Assembly (NCBI GenBank): GCA_017513865.1 | Contig: JAFWMN010000006.1 | Span: 107,064 to 171,063, forward strand | DNA from: Bacilli bacterium | GTDB lineage: Bacteria; Bacillota_I; Bacilli_A; RF39; UBA660 | Direction of reading: 5' to 3' | DNA length: 64,000 nucleotides | Shown: piece by piece, positions 1,566-56,955 of the stretch | Numbering within the stretch: the stretch's first letter is position 1 | Layout of the letters: every line of letters starts with the position of its first letter | Notes under the pieces: generated by a model | The model's database searches: none | Seen by the model: only the letters and a program-made list of their open reading frames with translations | What the model was told of the DNA's origin: nothing | Translations under genes and position numbers: made by a program

Positions 1566-2618
1566 ATGAAAAAGTATAAGAAAAATAAGTTTTTTCAGTT
1601 TTTATTTCCTTTCCTTTTTATTATTGGAATAGTTCTTATTTTTTTTGGTTTTAGAGATCGAAAAATTGTTAATTTAAAGTATAAGGAAGATAATAAAATA
1701 AATTATAATGTTTACTTGAAACCTAATAGTTTTTTTGAAACGCCATATTTAGGTGAAAACGAAACATATATTGCTAGTTTGATAGATTATATTGATATTC
1801 ATTTTCATTATGGAATAAAATATGATAAAAAGTTTTCGGGAAACTATAAATATAAATTTGTTGCTTTAGTTAGCGCTAATAAAAAGGATGCGAATGGTCA
1901 TTATTGGCAAAGAGAATATAGTTTAACCGAATTTAAAAATTTTGATGCAGTTAATCAGGATTTTATAGCAATAGATGATAATGTTAAAGTTAATTATGGT
2001 ACCTATAATGATATTTTAAATCAATTTAGAAAAGAATATGATTTAACAACACAGGGCGAATTAAAGGTTATTATGAAGGTAAGCAGTAATTTTCAGTTTA
2101 CCGAAGTAAAAGAACCTGTAGTTGATGATAGTGAACTTAATTTATCAATTCCTTTGTTAGAACAAGCTTTAGAACTTTCTATTAATAAAGATGTTTCTAA
2201 TGAAAGAGATGTTGTTTCTTTTGTTGAGAGTGATAATAGTATAATTTATATTTTCTTTAAAATTTTTGGAACACTTTGTATTATTTTTTCAATTGCTGGC
2301 TTTGTGATTGCTACAAAACGAGCAAGGGAATTTAGAAAAAACAATTTATATACGTTAAAACTTGATAAAATACTTAAAAATTATGACAGCATTATTGCTA
2401 ACGTTAAAAAGCTTCCTAATATTAATGATTTCAAAAAAATAGAAATAAGTAGTTTTGAAGAACTTTTAGATGTTTATAGTGAAGTTAGAATGCCTATAAA
2501 TTGTTATCAAGGAAGATATGAAGCTCTATTTGTTATAATTAATAATGAAACAGCATGGGTTTATAAGTTAAAAAGGTCAGACTTATCTGAAAAGAGTGAT
2601 GACTATGAAGAAGATTAA
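1566..2618 (+). CDS. Bitopic membrane protein of unknown function, with one N-terminal and one C-proximal TM helix, encoded in the SipW operon.
   Basis: An AAGGAG RBS precedes ATG 1566 (the track ORF starts earlier, at 1539). Hydrophobic segments are FFQFLFPFLFIIGIVLIFFGF and IYIFFKIFGTLCIIFSIAGFVIA. It overlaps neighbouring genes in an operon-like way. Confidence 0.55.
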   Translation: MKKYKKNKFFQFLFPFLFIIGIVLIFFGFRDRKIVNLKYKEDNKINYNVYLKPNSFFETPYLGENETYIASLIDYIDIHFHYGIKYDKKFSGNYKYKFVALVSANKKDANGHYWQREYSLTEFKNFDAVNQDFIAIDDNVKVNYGTYNDILNQFRKEYDLTTQGELKVIMKVSSNFQFTEVKEPVVDDSELNLSIPLLEQALELSINKDVSNERDVVSFVESDNSIIYIFFKIFGTLCIIFSIAGFVIATKRAREFRKNNLYTLKLDKILKNYDSIIANVKKLPNINDFKKIEISSFEELLDVYSEVRMPINCYQGRYEALFVIINNETAWVYKLKRSDLSEKSDDYEED

Positions 2619-4167
2619 TTTAAATAATAACGATAAAAAAACTATTAATATTAATATCTTTATGTCGGTATTGATTGTAGTTGTTTTATCGTTTATTTCT
2701 GTTGGTTATGCTTTATATGGTCAGAATTTAAGTGTGAGTGGTAATATTGGTTTTGGTCTTCAGGGTAAGATTGCGATTACTGATGTTACATTAACTTCAT
2801 CTACTAATGTTAGATCCGACAGTATTCCATCTTTTACTGATGATAGTGTTGATTTTAATTTGACTTTTGAAAAAGCTGCTGGGTCAACAGATCCGAATTA
2901 TCAAGCTGTTTATGAAATTACGATTTCTAATGGAACATTTTATGATTTTGAGTTTAATTTAGCAAATTTTCAACCAATTATAACTAATTCTCATGGAATA
3001 AATGTTGATCCGTCTTTTTTATCTACTTCTTTAAGTGGTATAAATATAGGGGATATGATTCCAGCTGGCGAGGATGTTACTTTTACGTTAACTTTGGATT
3101 TTAGACCTGACGTTGACGATACTTATTCAGTTAGTGGTGATATGGAAACAGAATTGGTAGAAGAACCACATGGGAGTCTTTTGGGATCTGTCCCTGAAGG
3201 TGCGCAAGGTGATTTGAAGGAAAGTTTAGGACATGATATTGTCTCTTTTACAGTAACAGTTATTAATTCTTATCAATCAAGTAGAACTTTTAATATAAAT
3301 ATTGCTGATACGAGTCATTTTCAACTTACTAATTCTGATGGTACTCCGCTTAGCAATTTTACAATAGCTGGAGGAACAACAGACACATATACTTTTTATG
3401 TAAAAAGAGTTAATGGAGCAATTTTTGGTGCTTCAAGTTTTACTACAGGAATTTATCTTTCTTATTCAGAAAATTCTAATGTTCCTTGCGGGAACGTTAC
3501 TTTATTTGTTGATGAAACGCAAATTGATGATACGACACCGCCACAAATTAGTGATGTAACTGCTGTTCAAAATAATGCGACAAGTAGCACAACTACTAAT
3601 GATACGGTTGGTTCAGTTACTGTTTCTTGGAACGGCGAAGATGCTGAATCTGGTGTAAAAAAATACTATGTTATTGTGAAAAATTCTAAAGGATCAACAA
3701 CTTATGAAACTACTGACAACACACCATCTTTAACGATTACGGGGCTTATAGATGACAGTAATTATACTTTCAAGGTTTATGGTGAAAACAACGATAATTA
3801 TAAGCCTAACGATAGTCAAATAGCTGTTGATTCGACAAGTCCTGGTGTTTGTTCAATGTCTACATCTTATTCATTTGATTGGCGTTATACAGTTGCATTT
3901 TCATCTGACACAAATAATATGCGAGAGTTGTCAACCACAGCCGTAAATAGGGGATATAATTATACCGTGACTCTTAGAGCCTCTAATAATTATAATCTTC
4001 CTAGTTCATTAAATTATGTAACCATGGGTGGGAATGAAATTACTTCTACCTCTGGGACAGAAACAGGACATTATAAATATACAAGTAGTAGTGGTTCTTT
4101 TAATGTATATGGGGTTACCGGAGATATTGTATTAAAACTAACACCAACAAGAAGTGGTGGATGTTAA
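2605..4167 (+). CDS. Large secreted protein with a SipW-cognate-type N-terminal signal (…ISVGYALYGQNLSVSG…) and a fibronectin-III-like domain. It is a likely SipW substrate or fibre/adhesin subunit.
   Basis: A basic N-terminus and hydrophobic core are followed by a GYAxY motif resembling the TasA/camelysin class. The FN3-like segment is 'TPPQISDVTAV…VSWNGEDAESGVKKYYVIV…YTFKVYGEN'. The start could be 2596 (GTG), 2599 or 2605; the AAAGAG RBS favours 2605. Confidence 0.6.
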   Translation: MKKINLNNNDKKTININIFMSVLIVVVLSFISVGYALYGQNLSVSGNIGFGLQGKIAITDVTLTSSTNVRSDSIPSFTDDSVDFNLTFEKAAGSTDPNYQAVYEITISNGTFYDFEFNLANFQPIITNSHGINVDPSFLSTSLSGINIGDMIPAGEDVTFTLTLDFRPDVDDTYSVSGDMETELVEEPHGSLLGSVPEGAQGDLKESLGHDIVSFTVTVINSYQSSRTFNINIADTSHFQLTNSDGTPLSNFTIAGGTTDTYTFYVKRVNGAIFGASSFTTGIYLSYSENSNVPCGNVTLFVDETQIDDTTPPQISDVTAVQNNATSSTTTNDTVGSVTVSWNGEDAESGVKKYYVIVKNSKGSTTYETTDNTPSLTITGLIDDSNYTFKVYGENNDNYKPNDSQIAVDSTSPGVCSMSTSYSFDWRYTVAFSSDTNNMRELSTTAVNRGYNYTVTLRASNNYNLPSSLNYVTMGGNEITSTSGTETGHYKYTSSSGSFNVYGVTGDIVLKLTPTRSGGC

Positions 4168-4170
4168 TAA

Positions 4171-4204
4171 AAAACACTATTTTTTATGAATAGTGTTTTT
4201 TTTG
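4171..4204. terminator. Bidirectional rho-independent terminator between convergent genes.
   Basis: A perfect 11-bp inverted repeat (AAAACACTATT / AATAGTGTTTT) has a 7-nt loop and is followed by a T-run on the + strand. Confidence 0.7.
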
Positions 4205-4860
4205 ATAATCAAAAAAGCGGTTATTATAAAGAGAAAAATGCTGAAAATTTGGTTTGAGGAAATTAGTTCTTTAATGTGACTATACCTTAGAAAATCTAAG
4301 GAAAATTTAAGGATTGAAATTAAAAGTAAAGTGATATAAGAAATGTTTTTTTTGTTTTTATTTGTATTACAGAAAAGAAATAAAATAAAAAACACGAAAG
4401 ATTCTAATAACTGTATAGGGAATAGGGGAATATTTAATCCATGAGGGTAGGTTACGCTGAAAGGTCCATTATAAGGAATGCCATAGCAACACCCAACAAA
4501 GAAACATCCAATTTTTCCGAAACTATAAATTAGCGGTAATGAAAGAATTGAATATTTAATTATTTTTTTATCTGAAGGATATATTTTTTCATAAATTAAT
4601 GGTGATATGATAACGCCAATTAATCCCCCATATGAGGAAAGACCACATTCTAAAAACTTTTTTTTAAAGCCACTTACAACAAATGTGTAAGTTTTAGCAG
4701 ACATATAGGTGATAATGAAGAAAAATATAAAAAAAAGTAGGATATTTTTTTTAGATATATTTTCATTTTTTAATGCAAAAAAAACATATAAAATGCCAAT
4801 GATAATTGAGAAGGACATCATTATTTTATAAAAAGGAAAAGGAATGTTATGTATTATCAT
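4177..4860 (-). CDS. Lgt-family (prolipoprotein diacylglyceryl transferase-like) paralog, short at 227 aa, with a mutated signature motif.
   Basis: It is colinear with Lgt (YGGLIGVII aligns with Lgt HGGLIGAIL). The Lgt signature GRWGNFxNxEAHG is replaced by GKIGCFFVGCCYG, and the C-terminal region is truncated. Confidence 0.55.
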   Translation of the reverse strand: MIIHNIPFPFYKIMMSFSIIIGILYVFFALKNENISKKNILLFFIFFFIITYMSAKTYTFVVSGFKKKFLECGLSSYGGLIGVIISPLIYEKIYPSDKKIIKYSILSLPLIYSFGKIGCFFVGCCYGIPYNGPFSVTYPHGLNIPLFPIQLLESFVFFILFLFCNTNKNKKNISYITLLLISILKFSLDFLRYSHIKELISSNQIFSIFLFIITAFLIIKKNTIHKK

Positions 4861-5084
4861 ATTATCACAACTTTCTATTTGAATTTTATCACAAAACTAG
4901 TTTTAAAACAATATTTTTTTATAATCGAAATTATGTGTATATTAGCTTTTTTGTGTTGATTATAAGTGATTATTTGTATGTAAACTAGGTTCTTGGAAAT
5001 ATAATTAATATATGATAAAATAGTTTTGATAAAAAGAGGCTATAATGAAATCTGGTTTACCAGTGTAAGAAAAGGAGATATGCG

Positions 5085-13405: not shown

Positions 13406-15229
13406 ATGAAAAAATATGTTAAATTTATATTTATATTTATATTTTTGATGATTGTGGGAATTTATAATGGAAGTGCGTTAAGTGATTCTGTTCATGTTCC
13501 TAATTATGAGAATTATAGATATATTATGGAAACTGAAAGTTTTGCGAACGGATCTAATAGACCGGTAATTTTTACTATTGGCGGTACAGATTATTTTTGT
13601 TCACATCTTCATTTAACTGAACCATGGGATAGAAATTGTTCTAAAATGTCTTTAAATGATAGTAATCCTGGTGATGGTCATTGGTCTCATCCAATGGCAG
13701 CAGCTATTGGTAAATTAGTTCAATATGTTTCTGAACATAAAACAGATGAGAATTTATATTATTTTGAAATCGCTACAAACCAATTCATTAAAAATAAAGG
13801 TGAGGGAGATAATGACAACTCTACAAATGGTGCTGGACCAACATCTACTTATGATAATTTTATGGATCTTATGAATACTGAGTATAATAGGGTTAAGAAT
13901 TTTGCGGCACCAACTATAACAATGACAGCTTTTACCCTTTCTAATAATAACTATACTTCAACTATAACTGTTTCTGGTTGTGAAAGTTGTGAAGTTGCAG
14001 TAAGTCCTAGTAATAAAGGAACATTATCTCATACAAGTGGTAGTAATGGTAATGGAAGTTATACTTTAACTGTTCCAGCAAGTGGTATTACAGCTGGTGC
14101 TAAAACAACATTTACGGTAACAGCTACTGACACTTTAACAGCTAGAATAGCTCGTAACTACAACTGTGGTGAAAACGTTCAAACAATCACACCTTTAGGA
14201 ACTGAAGGATATAGTACTTCTAAAAATGCATCAGCAACAAAAGATATTGAAAGATCTAAAATAATATTTAATAAAAAAGCAGCTGACACTAACGAAGTGC
14301 TTACTGGTGGTTCATTCGAATTTACTAAAAATAATACGGTAGTTGAAACTATTACTGTAGGGAATAAAACTTATCAAGATTTAGCTTTTGGAACTTATTG
14401 TATGGAAGAAAAAGAAGCACCAGAAGGTTATGTTAATGCTAAAGAAAAGAAATGTGTTACTCTTTCTAGTTCTAATCTTAATGCGACAATTACTATTTTT
14501 GATGATTTAACTTCAATTAAAATCAAAAAGATTGACGAAAACACAAAAGAAGCTTTAGAAGGGGCTAAACTAGTAATAGTTGATGAAGATGGTGAAGTTG
14601 TTAGTACAATTAACGATGAAGAATGTTCTTGGACTTCTGACGACGATTATGTATCGTTCTTTGGAATTCCAGTTGGAACATATTATATAAAAGAGCTAGA
14701 AGCCCCAGATGGCTACGAACTTATGCAAAATCAAGTAGAGTTTACAATAAATGAAGATGGATCAGTTGTAACTTCTAAAGAAGAAGATTTATCAGACGAT
14801 TCAATTGTAATTGTTAAGAATAAATTAACTAAAGTTGATATTAGTAAGCAAGACGCGACTACAGGAAAAGAACTTCCAGGAGCAAAATTACAAATTTTAG
14901 ATGCTGATGGCAATGTGGTAGAAGAGTGGACTTCTACAGATACTCCACACCGCGTTGAAGGGCTTAAAGCAGGACACTATTATTTAAAAGAAACAATTGC
15001 TCCTGCCGGTTATGAAAAAACAGAAACAACGGTAGAATTTGTAATATATTCTGATGGTTCTACAAAAGAAGTAGTTATGAAAAACGAACCAATAAAAGTT
15101 AAGGTTCCATCAACTGCTAAAAATATTTCGCTTATTTTAGCAGCAGGCGGCATTATATTTGTAGTTGTTGCCGGAACAATATTCCTTTATCAAGAAGGAA
15201 TAATAAAATCATCTAAGAATAAAAAATAA
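13406..15229 (+). CDS. Cell-wall-anchored surface adhesin with three SpaA/CnaB-type (prealbumin-like) repeats and a non-canonical sorting signal.
   Basis: A signal peptide starts at MKKYVKFIFIF. The repeats carry 'GTYYIKELEAPDGY', 'GHYYLKETIAPAGY' and 'GTYCMEEKEAPEGY'. The C-terminus is 'KVPSTAKN' plus a hydrophobic segment and a KSSKNKK tail. Confidence 0.75.
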   Translation: MKKYVKFIFIFIFLMIVGIYNGSALSDSVHVPNYENYRYIMETESFANGSNRPVIFTIGGTDYFCSHLHLTEPWDRNCSKMSLNDSNPGDGHWSHPMAAAIGKLVQYVSEHKTDENLYYFEIATNQFIKNKGEGDNDNSTNGAGPTSTYDNFMDLMNTEYNRVKNFAAPTITMTAFTLSNNNYTSTITVSGCESCEVAVSPSNKGTLSHTSGSNGNGSYTLTVPASGITAGAKTTFTVTATDTLTARIARNYNCGENVQTITPLGTEGYSTSKNASATKDIERSKIIFNKKAADTNEVLTGGSFEFTKNNTVVETITVGNKTYQDLAFGTYCMEEKEAPEGYVNAKEKKCVTLSSSNLNATITIFDDLTSIKIKKIDENTKEALEGAKLVIVDEDGEVVSTINDEECSWTSDDDYVSFFGIPVGTYYIKELEAPDGYELMQNQVEFTINEDGSVVTSKEEDLSDDSIVIVKNKLTKVDISKQDATTGKELPGAKLQILDADGNVVEEWTSTDTPHRVEGLKAGHYYLKETIAPAGYEKTETTVEFVIYSDGSTKEVVMKNEPIKVKVPSTAKNISLILAAGGIIFVVVAGTIFLYQEGIIKSSKNKK

Positions 15230-49782: not shown

Positions 49783-50238
49783 ATGAAAAAGATATTTATA
49801 TATTATAGTTTAAGTGGTAATGGTGATTTTGTTGCTTCCTACTTAAAAGAAAAAGGCTTTGATATTAGAAAAGTAATATCTAGTGATAAGATGCCCCAGA
49901 ATACTTTTTTAAGAATTATGACTGGTGGTTTTTTGGCAGGAATTGGTCATAAATCAAAACTAATTAATTTTGATAATGATATAAGGGATTATGATGAGAT
50001 AATAATTGGTTCACCTATTTGGAATGGTAGACTTTCTTGTCCTATTAATTCAGTATTAGATAATCTTGATTTAAACAACAAAAGATTAACTTTTATATTA
50101 TATAGTGGTTCTGGCGAGGCGCCCAAAGTAAATGAAAAATTGTCTCAGAAATTTCCCCAATCTAAAATTATTCATTTAAAAGAACCAAAAAGTAACATAG
50201 AAAACATGAAAACAATTTTTAATGAGGAGGACATATGA
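49783..50238 (+). CDS. Flavodoxin-like fold protein (Flavodoxin_4-type).
   Basis: 'KIFIYYSLSGNGDF' and 'IIIGSPIWNG' FMN-binding-like motifs are present. Confidence 0.55.
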   Translation: MKKIFIYYSLSGNGDFVASYLKEKGFDIRKVISSDKMPQNTFLRIMTGGFLAGIGHKSKLINFDNDIRDYDEIIIGSPIWNGRLSCPINSVLDNLDLNNKRLTFILYSGSGEAPKVNEKLSQKFPQSKIIHLKEPKSNIENMKTIFNEEDI

Positions 50239-51323
50239 ATAAAATTGATATTTTAAAATTTAATAATGAAAAAAAGAATATGGTGTATGGACCTTATTCA
50301 ATATTAGTGGCTTTATCAATGCTTGATGAAGGAGCTACGGAGGCTACTAAAGAAAGTTTAGATTTGTTTTTAGGAAATATTCCTATAAATAAATATAATA
50401 ATATTGAAAATGTTTTGTCAGTAGCTAATAAAATGTATATTAAAGATGATATAGCGAAAGATATAAACGAATCTTATAAAAATGTTTTAAGTGACAAGTA
50501 TAATGCTGAAATTGAAATTAATGATTTTAGCGATGAGTTTGTTATGAATAATTGGATTAACAATAAAACTTTCGGGCAGATAAAAAATATTGTTACTAAA
50601 GATGCTCTTTTAAATAATAATTTATTCTTAATTAATACTACGGCGATCGATATGGAATGGCAAGCAGAAATAAATGGTAGTTCTGTTAATGGCGGAATAT
50701 TTAACAATGGTTCAGAAGTAGAGGCAAGTTATATTTATGGTTTTACAAAGAATATGGCTTCTTATTATGAGAATGACGAGGTTTTATCTTTAGGTCTTAA
50801 TTTAAAAAAATATGATGATAATGATTATGAATTTGTGGCTATTCAACCTAAAGGTGTTGAACTTAGTGAGTATATAAATAATTTAAGTGACAATAAAGTA
50901 AATAATATTCTTGCAAATTTGAAATCTTTGTTAGACGAACCAAGAAATGTAGATATAAGTATTCCTAAATTTTCTTTTAATTATAGTTTGAATTGTTTAA
51001 GTACTTTTAAAAATATGGGTTTAGAAAATGTTTTTGAAAATGCCCATTTTGGCAAAATTGGAGATCTTCCAACACTTAATTTAGATGTTCTTCATAAAAC
51101 TAATATCGATTTTTCTGAGGTTGGTTTAAAAGCCGCAAGTGCAACAGTAGTATTATTATTTGAAGGTGCTTATTTCGATCCAAATGAAAGACTAATTATT
51201 GAAATAAACAAACCATTTATGTTTGTTATAAGAGAAAAGAATAAAAACGATATTTTGTTTATGGGTACTGTTTATAATCCTGTTTTATGGGCTGATGATT
51301 CAAAAAACTATGCTTATAAATAA
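50235..51323 (+). CDS. Serpin-family serine protease inhibitor (intracellular, no signal peptide).
   Basis: It has the 'YGPYSILVALSMLDEGATEATKESL' serpin N-terminal helix, a hinge/RCL 'EVGLKAASATVVLL', and the C-terminal 'KPFMFVIRE…ILFMGTVYNP'. A GAGGAGG RBS is present, and the start overlaps the flavodoxin stop (ATGA). Confidence 0.75.
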   Translation: MNKIDILKFNNEKKNMVYGPYSILVALSMLDEGATEATKESLDLFLGNIPINKYNNIENVLSVANKMYIKDDIAKDINESYKNVLSDKYNAEIEINDFSDEFVMNNWINNKTFGQIKNIVTKDALLNNNLFLINTTAIDMEWQAEINGSSVNGGIFNNGSEVEASYIYGFTKNMASYYENDEVLSLGLNLKKYDDNDYEFVAIQPKGVELSEYINNLSDNKVNNILANLKSLLDEPRNVDISIPKFSFNYSLNCLSTFKNMGLENVFENAHFGKIGDLPTLNLDVLHKTNIDFSEVGLKAASATVVLLFEGAYFDPNERLIIEINKPFMFVIREKNKNDILFMGTVYNPVLWADDSKNYAYK

Positions 51324-53807: not shown

Positions 53808-54707
53808 ATGAAAAAAATTGTTTTTGCAGTACTATTATCCCTTTTTGTTTTTACAAAGCCCGTTTTAGCTGAAGAAACAACAATAACGTATAATAAGTTG
53901 CAAGGAATTGCTTATAACCAGAAAATAGGCAACGAATTAAAATCGAATATAGTAACTTTTTTCCAAATGAAAAATCGAATTGCTTACTGTATTGAGCCAG
54001 GTGTGGAAATAAATGAAAGGTATTATGATATTGGCTATGATTGGAATGTGACTAATTTGTCTAGTGAATTGAAAGAAGAAATAGAAAAAATAGGATATTA
54101 TGGCTATGAATATCCCGGGCATAATAATAGTTATTATTATATTGCAGCTCAAGAGTTGATTTGGAAAGCTGTAAGACCAGATATCGAAGTGACATGGACT
54201 ACTGAAAAAAATTTAGGTGGGTCAATTATTGATATCAGTAAAGAGAAAAATGAAATAATGGATTTAGTTAATAATCATTCTTTAGTTCCAAGTTTTGCAG
54301 ATCAAATGTTTATTGATTATACGGGCAAAGAAATAATTTTAAAAGATGAAAATAATGTTCTAGATTATTATGAAGTTTCTGATAGTAACAATCATGCAAT
54401 TATTAGAGATGGTAATGTGTTAAAAATAAAGCTCAACGAAAAAAAAGTAGATGATGAAGAAATATTTTTGACCCGAAAATATTATGATAAGGAACCATTA
54501 TTAGTTTATAGTAGAGGAAATTCACAAAAATTAGCTGCTCTTAGAATTACAATGGATAGAAGATCTAGTTTCACTATTGGAAATAAAGAAGAACCAGAAG
54601 AAATTATAGAAGTTCCTGATACTGGGATTGATATTAATTTAGGGGAGTCAATATTTATGACTGTCTTAGGCTTAGGAATGATTATTAGTGTTTTTAAAAT
54701 TAATTAA
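53808..54707 (+). CDS. Sortase-anchored surface protein with a putative thioester (TQXA-like) domain and a VPDTG sorting signal.
   Basis: A signal peptide is present. 'AYCIEPG' fits the TED Cys motif [YFL]C-phi-[DNE], and 'IAAQELIWKA' fits the Gln motif phi-Q-x-phi-phi-W. The C-terminus is 'VPDTG' plus a hydrophobic segment and a 'KIN' tail. Confidence 0.55.
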   Translation: MKKIVFAVLLSLFVFTKPVLAEETTITYNKLQGIAYNQKIGNELKSNIVTFFQMKNRIAYCIEPGVEINERYYDIGYDWNVTNLSSELKEEIEKIGYYGYEYPGHNNSYYYIAAQELIWKAVRPDIEVTWTTEKNLGGSIIDISKEKNEIMDLVNNHSLVPSFADQMFIDYTGKEIILKDENNVLDYYEVSDSNNHAIIRDGNVLKIKLNEKKVDDEEIFLTRKYYDKEPLLVYSRGNSQKLAALRITMDRRSSFTIGNKEEPEEIIEVPDTGIDINLGESIFMTVLGLGMIISVFKIN

Positions 54708-55239
54708 ATTTTTATCATTTGTATTTTTGTTTTTTTCATTTAGTCTATGTAATTATAATGAAAACAGATTAAATAATAAAGTAGATGAATATATAAGTCA
54801 CAATTATTTAAACGAAAAAGTTTCAGCAGAGCCATCTAAACCGATTACTTTAAGATCTAATCAAAGTATTTATATTCCTAAAATTAATTTAGAGAAAAAT
54901 TTATATAGCATTAATTCTAAACTTAATACAGTTAATAAGAATATTCAAATATTAAAAAATTCTGATATGCCGGATAAAGAAAACGGTAATTTTGTATTAG
55001 CCGCACATAGTGGGAATAGTTCTGTTTCTTATTTTCATAATTTATATAAACTTGATATCGGTGATGAGGTAATAATAAAATATAATAATCATAAATATAT
55101 TTATGCTGTGGATAAAAAATATGAGGTAATTAAAACAGGTAAAGTATCAATTAAAAGGGATAAAAACAAAAATTCAATAACGTTAATAACTTGTAAGGAA
55201 AAAGACAAGCAATTAGTTGTTATTGGCTATTTAACTTAA
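54688..55239 (+). CDS. Sortase (small, class B/D-like) transpeptidase.
   Basis: It has an N-terminal TM anchor, a 'LAAHSG' His motif and the 'TLITC' catalytic Cys motif. A GTG start overlaps the substrate gene's 3' end. Confidence 0.8.
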   Translation: MFLKLIKFLSFVFLFFSFSLCNYNENRLNNKVDEYISHNYLNEKVSAEPSKPITLRSNQSIYIPKINLEKNLYSINSKLNTVNKNIQILKNSDMPDKENGNFVLAAHSGNSSVSYFHNLYKLDIGDEVIIKYNNHKYIYAVDKKYEVIKTGKVSIKRDKNKNSITLITCKEKDKQLVVIGYLT

Positions 55240-55295
55240 AAAGACGAAATGTCTTTTTTTATTAGTAATATGAATATATTTATATAGGTGATTGA

Positions 55296-55958
55296 ATGAG
55301 GAAAACTCGTATAGTTATATTTGTGGTTTTTTTAATATTTTTATCGTTTTTTAATGTAGTTTGGGCTAGTGATAAAAAAATGAATTTGTTTTCAAAAGTA
55401 ATATATTTAGATCCTGGACATGGAGGGGCAGATAGTGGGGCTTATTATAAGAATTATAGAGAAGCTGACATTAATCTCCAAATAAGTAAAAAACTTATGG
55501 ATATTTTAAAAAAAGAAGGGGCTATAGTTTATTTGACAAGGTATGATGATTATGATTTATCTATTTCTAATGCTTGGAATAGAAAACGTAGTGATTTGTC
55601 TAGAAGAGCTAATATTATAAATAAATCTAAATGTGATTTATATTTATCTATTCATTTAAATGCTGAGGATAGTGGTTTATTTAGAGGAGCTGAAGTTTAT
55701 TATGATACGATAAATGCTGAAAATGAAAAAATTGCTTATATTTTTCAAGATGAATTCAGAAGACATTTGAATTCAAATAGGAGTTTTAAGGAAAACAGTA
55801 CTAAATATTTACAAAGAAGAGTTAATAGACCAGGTGTTTTATTAGAGGTTGGCTTTTTATCTAATGCTAGCGATAGGGCTTTATTAATAGATGCGACTTA
55901 TCAAAATAAAATAGCTAATGTTATAAAAACTGGTATTATTAGATATTTTGATAGTTAA
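55296..55958 (+). CDS. cwlD: N-acetylmuramoyl-L-alanine amidase, Amidase_3 family (CwlD-like, germination-specific).
   Basis: A signal/TM segment is followed by 'VIYLDPGHGGADSGA', 'SIHLNAED' and 'RGAEVYY'. It sits in the rpsI-…-cwlD synteny seen in Bacillus. Confidence 0.8.
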   Translation: MRKTRIVIFVVFLIFLSFFNVVWASDKKMNLFSKVIYLDPGHGGADSGAYYKNYREADINLQISKKLMDILKKEGAIVYLTRYDDYDLSISNAWNRKRSDLSRRANIINKSKCDLYLSIHLNAEDSGLFRGAEVYYDTINAENEKIAYIFQDEFRRHLNSNRSFKENSTKYLQRRVNRPGVLLEVGFLSNASDRALLIDATYQNKIANVIKTGIIRYFDS

Positions 55959-56022: not shown

Positions 56023-56955
56023 ATGACAACGAAAACATTTCGAACTTTAGATGAACAAATTGGTATTTTAAGAAGCAAGGGACTTACTGTTAATGACGAA
56101 GAAAATGCTAGAAAAGTTTTATATAGAGAAAATTACTTTTTTATAAGTGGATATAGGCATTTATTTACGCTTAAAGGAGAAAAAGATAATTATATAAAGG
56201 GAACCACTTTTGATGAACTTTATGCGACTTTTGTTTTTGATAGAAGAATTAGAAATACCTTTTTTAAGAATATTTTAATTGTTGAAAATAATTTAAAATC
56301 AATTATGAGTTATCAATTGTCTAAGAAATATGGTATTAAAGAAAAAGACTATTTGGAACCAACAAATTTTTCTGATGATGCGATTAGATCAAGGCAAGTT
56401 TACGATGTTTTAAATAAAGTTAAAAGGCAAATTAGAGTTAATGGTAATAAGCATACAGCTACTTATCATTATATAAATAATTATGGATATATTCCTTTAT
56501 GGATTTTAGTTAAAGTTTTATCATTTGGAATTATGTCGGAGTTTTTTGATATTTTAAAACTAGAAGATAAAGAAGAAATTATAAAACCATATCAAATTGA
56601 TGTTGAAACAATGGTTGTATTTTTAGCTTTGCTTTCTAATTTTAGAAATGTTTGTGCGCATGAGGATATGCTTTATGATCATAGAACTCAAAGATCTATT
56701 CCTGATACAAAATATCATGAGGCATTAGGCATTGAAAAAAATGAGGATGGTTATATATACGGTAAAAATGATTTATTTAGTTTGGTAATTATTCTTAAAT
56801 ATATGCTTAGAGATGAAGAATTTTATGAAATGATAGATGAGATTAAAAGAGAAGTTGATCTTTTAGATGAAAATGTTGACATTGTTCCTTTAGACCATAT
56901 TTTAAACAAAATTGGTTTTCCTAGTAATTGGTATGATATAAAGGATCTTGATTAG
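56023..56955 (+). CDS. Abi_2 family (AbiD/AbiF-like) abortive-infection protein.
   Basis: It is ~310 aa, with 'RRIRNTFFKNILIVENNLKS' and the conserved 'LSNFRNVCAHEDMLYD' block typical of Abi_2. It has its own promoter (TGtgTTATAAT at ~55995). Confidence 0.65.
   Translation: MTTKTFRTLDEQIGILRSKGLTVNDEENARKVLYRENYFFISGYRHLFTLKGEKDNYIKGTTFDELYATFVFDRRIRNTFFKNILIVENNLKSIMSYQLSKKYGIKEKDYLEPTNFSDDAIRSRQVYDVLNKVKRQIRVNGNKHTATYHYINNYGYIPLWILVKVLSFGIMSEFFDILKLEDKEEIIKPYQIDVETMVVFLALLSNFRNVCAHEDMLYDHRTQRSIPDTKYHEALGIEKNEDGYIYGKNDLFSLVIILKYMLRDEEFYEMIDEIKREVDLLDENVDIVPLDHILNKIGFPSNWYDIKDLD

Follow-up and report, generated by a model that had tools for sequence, protein, structure and literature searches.

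The 64-kb window analysed here is a stretch of 64,000 nt from the genome of a Bacilli bacterium of the GTDB order RF39 (contig JAFWMN010000006.1, positions 107,064 to 171,063), and all positions below refer to it. A lineage probably near RF39 is also suggested by its synteny with, and similarity to, loci of Ca. Coprosoma/CAG-822. Towards its end lie two genes on the same strand:

53808..54707, plus strand: gene of a secreted class II thioester-domain (TED) protein, ATG start, 299 aa
54688..55239, plus strand: gene of a membrane-anchored sortase, GTG start, 183 aa

According to the open reading frame coordinates, the 3' end of the TED gene and the start of the sortase gene share 20 nt. Public gene calls on identical contigs give both genes the same boundaries, and the identical protein is already labelled "thioester domain-containing protein" at NCBI. 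The explanation that best accounts for the pair, to which we assign a probability of roughly 0.7 from sequence comparisons, is that the two genes form a translationally coupled surface-display module, in which a secreted adhesin with a single TED would be attached to the wall of the cell by a dedicated sortase that recognises a V-P-x-T signal and carries Gln in place of the catalytic Arg.

The original prediction for this locus took the 299-aa protein to be a thioester-domain protein, and this is borne out by the Pfam TED family PF08341, which matches residues 58-122 with 30.8 bits (cut-off 22), and by an alignment to the TED of SaTIE (PDB entry 6fx6). A match to PF20610 TED_2 (15.5 bits) is under the cut-off of that family. 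The protein is made up of a signal peptide, a single TED, some 10 linker residues (EEPEEIIE) and a sorting signal, and it contains neither isopeptide nor ester stalk domains. The structure model predicts a hydrophobic helix at residues 2-14, within the signal peptide. The features of the export signal and of the TED are the following:

53808..53870, plus strand: Sec signal peptide, residues 1-21, MKKIVFAVLLSLFVFTKPVLA followed by EE (from sequence; cleavage site predicted)
53985..53996, plus strand: Y60-C61-I62-E63, the [YFL]C-Φ-ζ motif, aligned to SaTIE Cys296
53988..53990, plus strand: Cys61, predicted thioester cysteine, the sole Cys of the 299-aa protein, at the end of model strand 57-61
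54144..54164, plus strand: A113-A-Q115-E-L-I-W119, helical TQxxΦW helper motif, aligned to SaTIE ATQMLIW, in model helix 108-122
54525..54527, plus strand: Gln240 in G-N-S-Q-K-L-A-A-L, predicted thioester-forming Gln, aligned to SaTIE Gln467, before model strand 241-245

Three motifs have been defined for TEDs: a strand motif [YFL]CΦζ that contains the Cys, a helical TQxxΦW motif, and a weak strand motif ΦQζΦΦ (PMC4450167, PMC6194298). The Gln of the helical motif does not take part in the bond; the bonding Gln is provided by the ΦQζΦΦ motif, which in class II TEDs is located far downstream, past an inserted beta-sandwich (PMC4450167, PMC6194298). The stretch AAQELIW had been read as the motif with the bond-forming Gln; this assignment has to be given up, as the stretch is the helical helper, and the equivalent of SaTIE Gln467 is Gln240. 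The sequence match to 6fx6 spans residues 37-246 and pairs Cys61 with Cys296 and Gln240 with Gln467. As judged from its primers, the 6fx6 construct consists of G-A-M-A followed by Gln254-Gly502; by this numbering, positions 47 and 218 of the chain correspond to Cys296 and Gln467, the pair whose thioester was seen experimentally, by crystallography, in SaTIE (PMC6194298).

The similarity to the SaTIE-TED (6fx6, PMC6194298) extends beyond the paired residues. The same three motifs occur in the same order and in the same secondary-structure context, and in both proteins an inserted Ig-like beta-sandwich separates the helper helix from the Gln strand; together with a fold like that of the solved class II TEDs, this places the window TED in class II. 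The sequence S-Q240-K-L-A fits the weak Φ-Q-ζ-Φ-Φ motif and stands in a beta context. However, the two domains share only about 20% identity, and the helper motif of the window protein begins with Ala, where Thr is expected. Among 171 distinct TED homologues, Cys61 and Gln115 are present in every sequence (171/171 each) and Trp119 in 170/171, and 163 of the 164 homologues aligned at position 240 have Gln there. From the homology to SaTIE we infer that Cys61 and Gln240 form the internal thioester.

Like BaTIE and the other TIE adhesins, including SfbI and Cpa (PMC4450167), the window protein is a secreted protein that has its TED at the N-terminus and a sortase signal at the C-terminus, and its presumed function would be the same, covalent adhesion through attack of a target amine on the thioester. 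In contrast to these adhesins it has no isopeptide or ester stalk, carries VPDTG rather than LPXTG, and is accompanied by its own dedicated sortase. SaTIE is a large protein that combines its TED with four isopeptide and two ester domains; in the window protein the TED stands alone, some 10 residues from the anchor motif. The adhesin is a minimal, and otherwise ordinary, new member of the known TED family.

The C-terminus of the TED protein has the layout of a sorting signal:

54612..54626, plus strand: V269-P-D-T-G273 sorting motif, with cleavage predicted after Thr272
54627..54704, plus strand: C-terminal retention segment, IDINLGE, hydrophobic SIFMTVLGLGMIISVF, then K-I-N; 26 residues after VPDTG

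The VPDTG at residues 269-273 agrees with the earlier claim of a non-LPXTG signal. The retention segment reaches a peak 15-residue Kyte-Doolittle hydropathy of 2.44 and corresponds to model helix 278-298, so that the hydrophobic part of the predicted tail stands; its "short basic tail" does not, as the positive charge is minimal and consists of the one Lys in K-I-N. The 120 closest TED homologues mostly end in VPNTG (71) or VPDTG (44), which amounts to VP[DN]TG in 115/120. We scanned one genome per GTDB species, found the sortase family in at least 583 genomes, and examined the best 80 loci. In 76 of these, the gene overlapping the sortase start ends in a V-P-x-T-x sorting signal and a membrane anchor, with 22-34 residues following the motif Thr and with E or D directly before the motif in 60/76. 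Within the 76 signals, the first position is V in 74 (the other two have Cys), the second is always P and the fourth always T. The third position is N in 41, I in 12, D in 10 and K in 7, and the fifth position shows the widest range (D 14, S 9, E 7, M 4, L 3, A 3, and others), with Gly in only 32/76 loci. The motif counts among the TED homologues and the 76 loci therefore identify V-P-x-T as the conserved recognition element, and the Gly is local to the subgroup with short TED proteins. The xPxTG specificity suggested in the original prediction does not agree with these counts. Nor is VPDTG without precedent: the S. pneumoniae pilin RrgC has it as its sorting motif (PMC11231552). The motif of RrgC, a substrate in the RrgC/SrtC-3 system, is identical to that of the window protein; however, RrgC is the base pilin of a pilus and is handled by class C sortases that possess a lid and the Arg, whereas a pilus locus is absent here, and the window sortase has neither the lid nor the Arg.

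That the neighbouring gene encodes a sortase, as had been proposed, is supported by Pfam Sortase PF04203 (71.1 bits; cut-off 26.6) and by TIGR01076 (56 bits; cut-off 39.35), and by matches to the eight-stranded beta-barrel fold of sortases. The comparison with sortase hidden Markov models that the original prediction had put forward as a check has a divided outcome: these two superfamily models recognise the protein, but it reaches the cut-off of no class model in NCBIfam (NF0337xx), with scores and cut-offs of 68.2/160 for class C, 50.6/160 for class E, 41.1/165 for class D and 17.4/166 for class F. The AlphaFold2 model, with a mean predicted local distance difference test (pLDDT) value of 85, shows a membrane helix at residues 2-21, a disordered linker, and a beta-barrel at about residues 59-183. 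In Foldseek searches this model matches class C, A, D and E sortases about equally well (E about 1e-9 to 1e-10, probability 1.0). The best solved relatives in profile comparisons are C. perfringens SrtD 4d70 (3e-17), the E. faecalis Ebp SrtC 24rr, S. agalactiae SrtC1 4d7w, and B. anthracis SrtA 2kw8. The residues that concern the active site are:

55006..55008, plus strand: His107 (LAAH-SG), catalytic His, after model strand 101-106
55132..55158, plus strand: K149-T-G151 ... Arg157 region, candidate substrate-pocket or compensating residues (putative role)
55192..55194, plus strand: Cys169 (TLITC), catalytic Cys, on model strand 163-170
55210..55212, plus strand: Gln175, in the place of the canonical catalytic Arg (SaSrtA Arg197), second residue of model strand 174-182 (beta-8)

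We surveyed these positions in two sets of family members. The first comprises 196 distinct sequences, drawn from 120 homologues and the 80 genomic loci; the second comprises 148 further representatives of clusters at 50% identity, supplied by a profile search that returned 629 such representatives, one per cluster, at E <= 1e-30. His107 and Cys169 are invariant in both sets (196/196 and 148/148, 344 sequences in total). Because the Pfam scores are above their cut-offs and the motifs are invariant, or nearly so, among the homologues, neither the TED nor the sortase features can be attributed to chance. With the class D and C enzymes (4d70, 4d7w, 24rr) and B. anthracis SrtA (2kw8), the window sortase shares the beta-barrel, the N-terminal membrane anchor, the His on beta-4 (xAHxG) and the Cys of TLxTC on beta-7; an adjoining substrate gene, which is usual for specialised sortases, is also found here. 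It differs from these enzymes in having Gln rather than Arg on beta-8, in the absence of a class C lid (the DP[FWY] lid motif was not found in the protein), and in the V-P-x-T-x motif with its variable fifth residue. As far as sequence tells, the 183-aa protein is sortase-like, belongs to the superfamily, and falls outside classes A-F.

The original prediction had failed to see the usual catalytic Arg, and this residue is indeed missing. Both phmmer and the profile comparison pair Gln175 with the Arg of 4d70 and of 2kw8, and MAFFT pairs it with that of S. aureus SrtA; quite apart from alignments, no Arg occurs among the 14 residues that follow Cys169, KEKDKQLVVIGYLT. Position 175 is occupied by Gln in 194 of the 196 sequences, with His in the other two, and by Gln in all of the 148, which gives 342 Gln, 2 His and 0 Arg in total. 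The two sequences with His (…KNKHIVIV… and …KDRHLVII…) are those from locus L026, 5651..6289, and from P0200; the protein encoded upstream of the former ends in VPNTM. The Cys and the Gln are 6 residues apart, compared with 13 residues between Cys and Arg in SaSrtA, so that the loop between beta-7 and beta-8 is very short. We also considered Arg157 as a catalytic Arg that had moved to a different place in the sequence. Lys149 is found in 196/196 and 147/148 sequences and Arg157 in 185/196 of the first set, but Arg157 is present in only 121/148 of the cluster representatives, and this candidate is weakened as a consequence. Textbooks and a 2024 review describe the His-Cys-Arg site as common to all sortase classes (PMC11231552). 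No report of a Gln-for-Arg or "VPXTG" sortase was found in the literature searched, which omits most subscription journals.

An alternative explanation for the Gln is that the enzyme is no transpeptidase, and that the sortase fold has been weakened or repurposed, for instance as a protease that releases the adhesin or as a chaperone-like partner. The canonical Arg is missing in every member of the family, and the variable fifth residue of the signal is unusual among sortases; furthermore, S. aureus SrtA reportedly depends on its Arg for efficient catalysis, according to work in the reference list of PMC11231552. If the transpeptidase activity had been lost, however, one would have to explain why His107, Cys169 and the TLITC context are invariant down to 38% identity to the window enzyme and in the 148 cluster representatives, and why V-P-x-T and the anchor are strictly kept in the overlapping gene; a dead enzyme would not hold both. 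Hydrolytic release, in addition, would not need an anchor architecture identical to that of sortase substrates. That an intact His/Cys site and a sorting signal to match it are so strictly conserved together argues for an active enzyme, and we regard the loss of transpeptidation as improbable.

The window contains a further protein with a related sorting signal, located about 40 kb from the TED gene:

13406..15229, plus strand: 607-aa secreted protein with three SpaA/CnaB-type domains (Pfam SpaA, 168.8 bits over 3 stretches)

The C-terminus of this protein is formed by K-V-P-S-T-A, then a hydrophobic segment, then KSSKNKK, and the best match of the protein in the PDB is BaTIE 6fwv (E 5e-15). 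To judge by this tail, the sortase at 54688..55239 possibly has in it another substrate of the VPxT type; no second sortase was found in the 64-kb window, where the gene at 54688..55239 is the only one. The N-terminal domain of about 280 aa, which contains YFCSHL and ATNQFIK, was considered as a second TED, but this is not supported, with an hhalign probability of 0.25 and no sequence match in the PDB.

The presence of a separate stalk-like protein with a VPSTA signal could also be taken to mean that the sortase is a pilus-type ligase, which would join the TED protein as a tip adhesin, via Thr272, to a Lys of a stalk such as the 607-aa SpaA protein, similar to the TED-bearing Cpa (VPPTG) on the S. 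pyogenes pilus. VPDTG and other motifs without Leu are typical of pilins under the control of pilus sortases, and the highest NCBIfam score of the window sortase is that for class C. Moreover, in many related genomes a single long protein encoded upstream of the sortase combines a TED with SpaA repeats, and the arrangement in the window could therefore be a split version of this fusion. However, the class C score (68 versus 160) is far under the cut-off, the enzyme does not have the DP[FWY] lid, and the YPK motif is absent from both the TED protein and the 607-aa protein. The 40 kb between the two genes and the single sortase of the window also speak against this explanation, as pili normally need both a polymerising and an anchoring enzyme. 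We consider a pilus ligase unlikely, if less so than an enzyme without transpeptidase activity, and prefer anchoring of the TED protein to the wall.

The 80 loci come almost entirely from uncultured gut bacteria, represented by metagenome-assembled genomes that mostly bear the labels Bacilli, Tenericutes, Erysipelotrichaceae or Firmicutes, while some few are labelled otherwise (Clostridia, Oscillospiraceae, Muribaculaceae). Complete chromosomes of 1.34-1.54 Mb are among them, and so are Firmicutes CAG:822 and two members of the GTDB order RF39, family CAG-822, namely Candidatus Coprosoma and Ca. Fimihabitans (PMC8035907). The gene upstream of the sortase belongs to the TED family in 55/80 loci, and in the rest it encodes another surface protein of the SpaA type. 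The upstream TED proteins are either short (293-330 aa, like that in the window) or long (500-1100 aa, with SpaA/CnaB repeats).

Several observations weigh against the proposed display module. No NCBIfam family matches the TED protein at E <= 1, and this includes TIGR03934/TQXA, the model that the original prediction had named as a check, with the absence of a TQXA hit as grounds for refutation. This ground was too narrow, and we do not count the miss as a refutation because the Pfam TED family and the structure comparison are positive. The structure model of the TED protein is of moderate confidence, with a pLDDT of 78 overall and of 60-76 near Cys61 and Gln240. With a linker of no more than about 10 residues up to the anchor point, the TED could be buried in a thick wall. 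The Gln enzyme may be slow, may follow a different mechanism, or may have a task other than wall anchoring. Finally, the 80 loci were picked by their similarity to the window sortase, so that they describe this family and not all sortases of these organisms.

If the module functions as a TED adhesin with its dedicated Gln sortase, the following sequence of events can be envisioned. The 299-aa protein would be exported by the Sec pathway, and its signal peptide would be removed after Ala21. The single class II TED would fold, and Cys61 and Gln240 would react with each other to form the internal thioester, aided by Gln115 and Trp119, in line with the homology described above. While the C-terminal hydrophobic segment keeps the TED protein in the membrane, the adjoining sortase would cut after Thr272 of E-V-P-D-T|G, with Cys169 forming the acyl-enzyme, and the TED protein would then be passed on to an amine of a peptidoglycan precursor. 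In this reaction the carboxamide of the Gln may provide the signal or the oxyanion with the hydrogen bond that normally comes from Arg, possibly together with Lys149, which is invariant among the 196 sequences; SrtA with a neutral citrulline at position Arg197 reportedly keeps activity. The very short beta-7/beta-8 loop would leave the site past the scissile bond open, in keeping with the variability of the fifth motif residue. At the surface, an amine on a host or other target would attack the thioester, resulting in a covalent isopeptide tether; covalent capture of a target through a thioester has been demonstrated for SfbI (PMC4450167). As its sole stalk, the adhesin would have the Ig-like beta-sandwich of its TED, which is of class II.

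The order of genes around the pair is methyltransferase, pseudouridine synthase, PIG-L-like deacetylase, TED protein, sortase, CwlD-like amidase, Abi_2 and HtrA, and this order is common to about 19-25 of the 80 related species-level loci. The conserved gene order argues that the TED-sortase locus is part of the chromosomal core and not of a mobile element. A class II TED adhesin, TIEpLS20, is needed for efficient conjugation of pLS20 (PMC8092201), and by analogy the TED protein could be regarded as an adhesin of a mobile element that mediates mating-pair or other cell-to-cell contacts. However, its neighbours are housekeeping and cell-wall genes in conserved order, no transfer genes adjoin the locus, and TIEpLS20 has neither a sorting signal nor a sortase (PMC8092201). 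We consider a role as a mobile-element adhesin extremely improbable, and a conjugative or mobile-element context of the locus itself was rejected because of the conserved housekeeping synteny.

Other genes near the pair include:

50235..51323, plus strand: serpin-family protein, 362 aa (Pfam PF00079 in the public gene call)
55296..55958, plus strand: CwlD-like amidase (TIGR02883, 195 bits, just under the cut-off of 221.55)
56023..56955, plus strand: Abi_2 (abortive-infection-like) protein, flanked by the CwlD-like amidase and HtrA; Pfam 132 bits
58055..58480, minus strand: Hydrolase_2 (SleB-like) protein

The promoter scan returned 30 promoter-like sites where 22.8 are expected and, in DNA of 29.5% G+C, is uninformative. 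The terminator scan called no terminator 3' of the sortase gene; a short hairpin, AAGAC-gaaat-GTCTT, with a run of T at 55242..55262 is under the threshold of the scan. In related genomes two added genes are located between the PIG-L-like and the TED gene, both of which are absent from the window (L007 1694..4805; L014 1912..5029; L016 1687..4804; L004 1693..4807). The first encodes a membrane protein of about 840 aa, and the second a protein of about 200 aa with the C-terminal sequence ...FLHCFG..GYTGGCVAVS.., similar to the active site of an L,D-transpeptidase; locus L012 has only the large gene (2543..5041, 832 aa). Given these added genes, the CwlD-like amidase and HtrA, the neighbourhood looks cell-wall related. 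The CwlD-like amidase and the SleB-like protein hint that this lineage, in spite of its small genome, still makes a spore cortex. The position of the Abi_2 gene is kept in 22 related species-level loci, which is odd for a supposed phage-defence gene. A counterpart of the serpin gene was not found in the 6-kb upstream flanks of the 80 related loci.

What makes the locus interesting is almost wholly the Gln-for-Arg clade together with its V-P-x-T signal. A survey of Bacilli orders based on KEGG Orthology (KO) assignments reported srtA/B to be absent from RFN20 and ML615J-28, and a reduced display of surface proteins was inferred from this (PMC10868615); divergent sortases like that of the window, which score far under the class thresholds, may be missed by surveys of this type. 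At about even odds, the clade would represent a widespread and so far undescribed class of active His-Cys-Gln sortases with a short beta-7/beta-8 loop, which recognise V-P-x-T, accept almost any residue after the scissile Thr, and form the resident anchoring system of RF39-like gut Bacilli. If this were the case, then the "universal" catalytic Arg would be dispensable in nature, and the clade would offer an orthogonal recognition motif for protein ligation. A natural Gln clade of this size allows a direct test of whether the Arg acts through its charge or through a hydrogen bond, and a VPxT enzyme with a relaxed fifth position, if active, could serve protein engineering. For the organisms themselves, the module would represent a conserved means of surface display, usually with a thioester adhesin, in uncultured, genome-reduced gut Bacilli.

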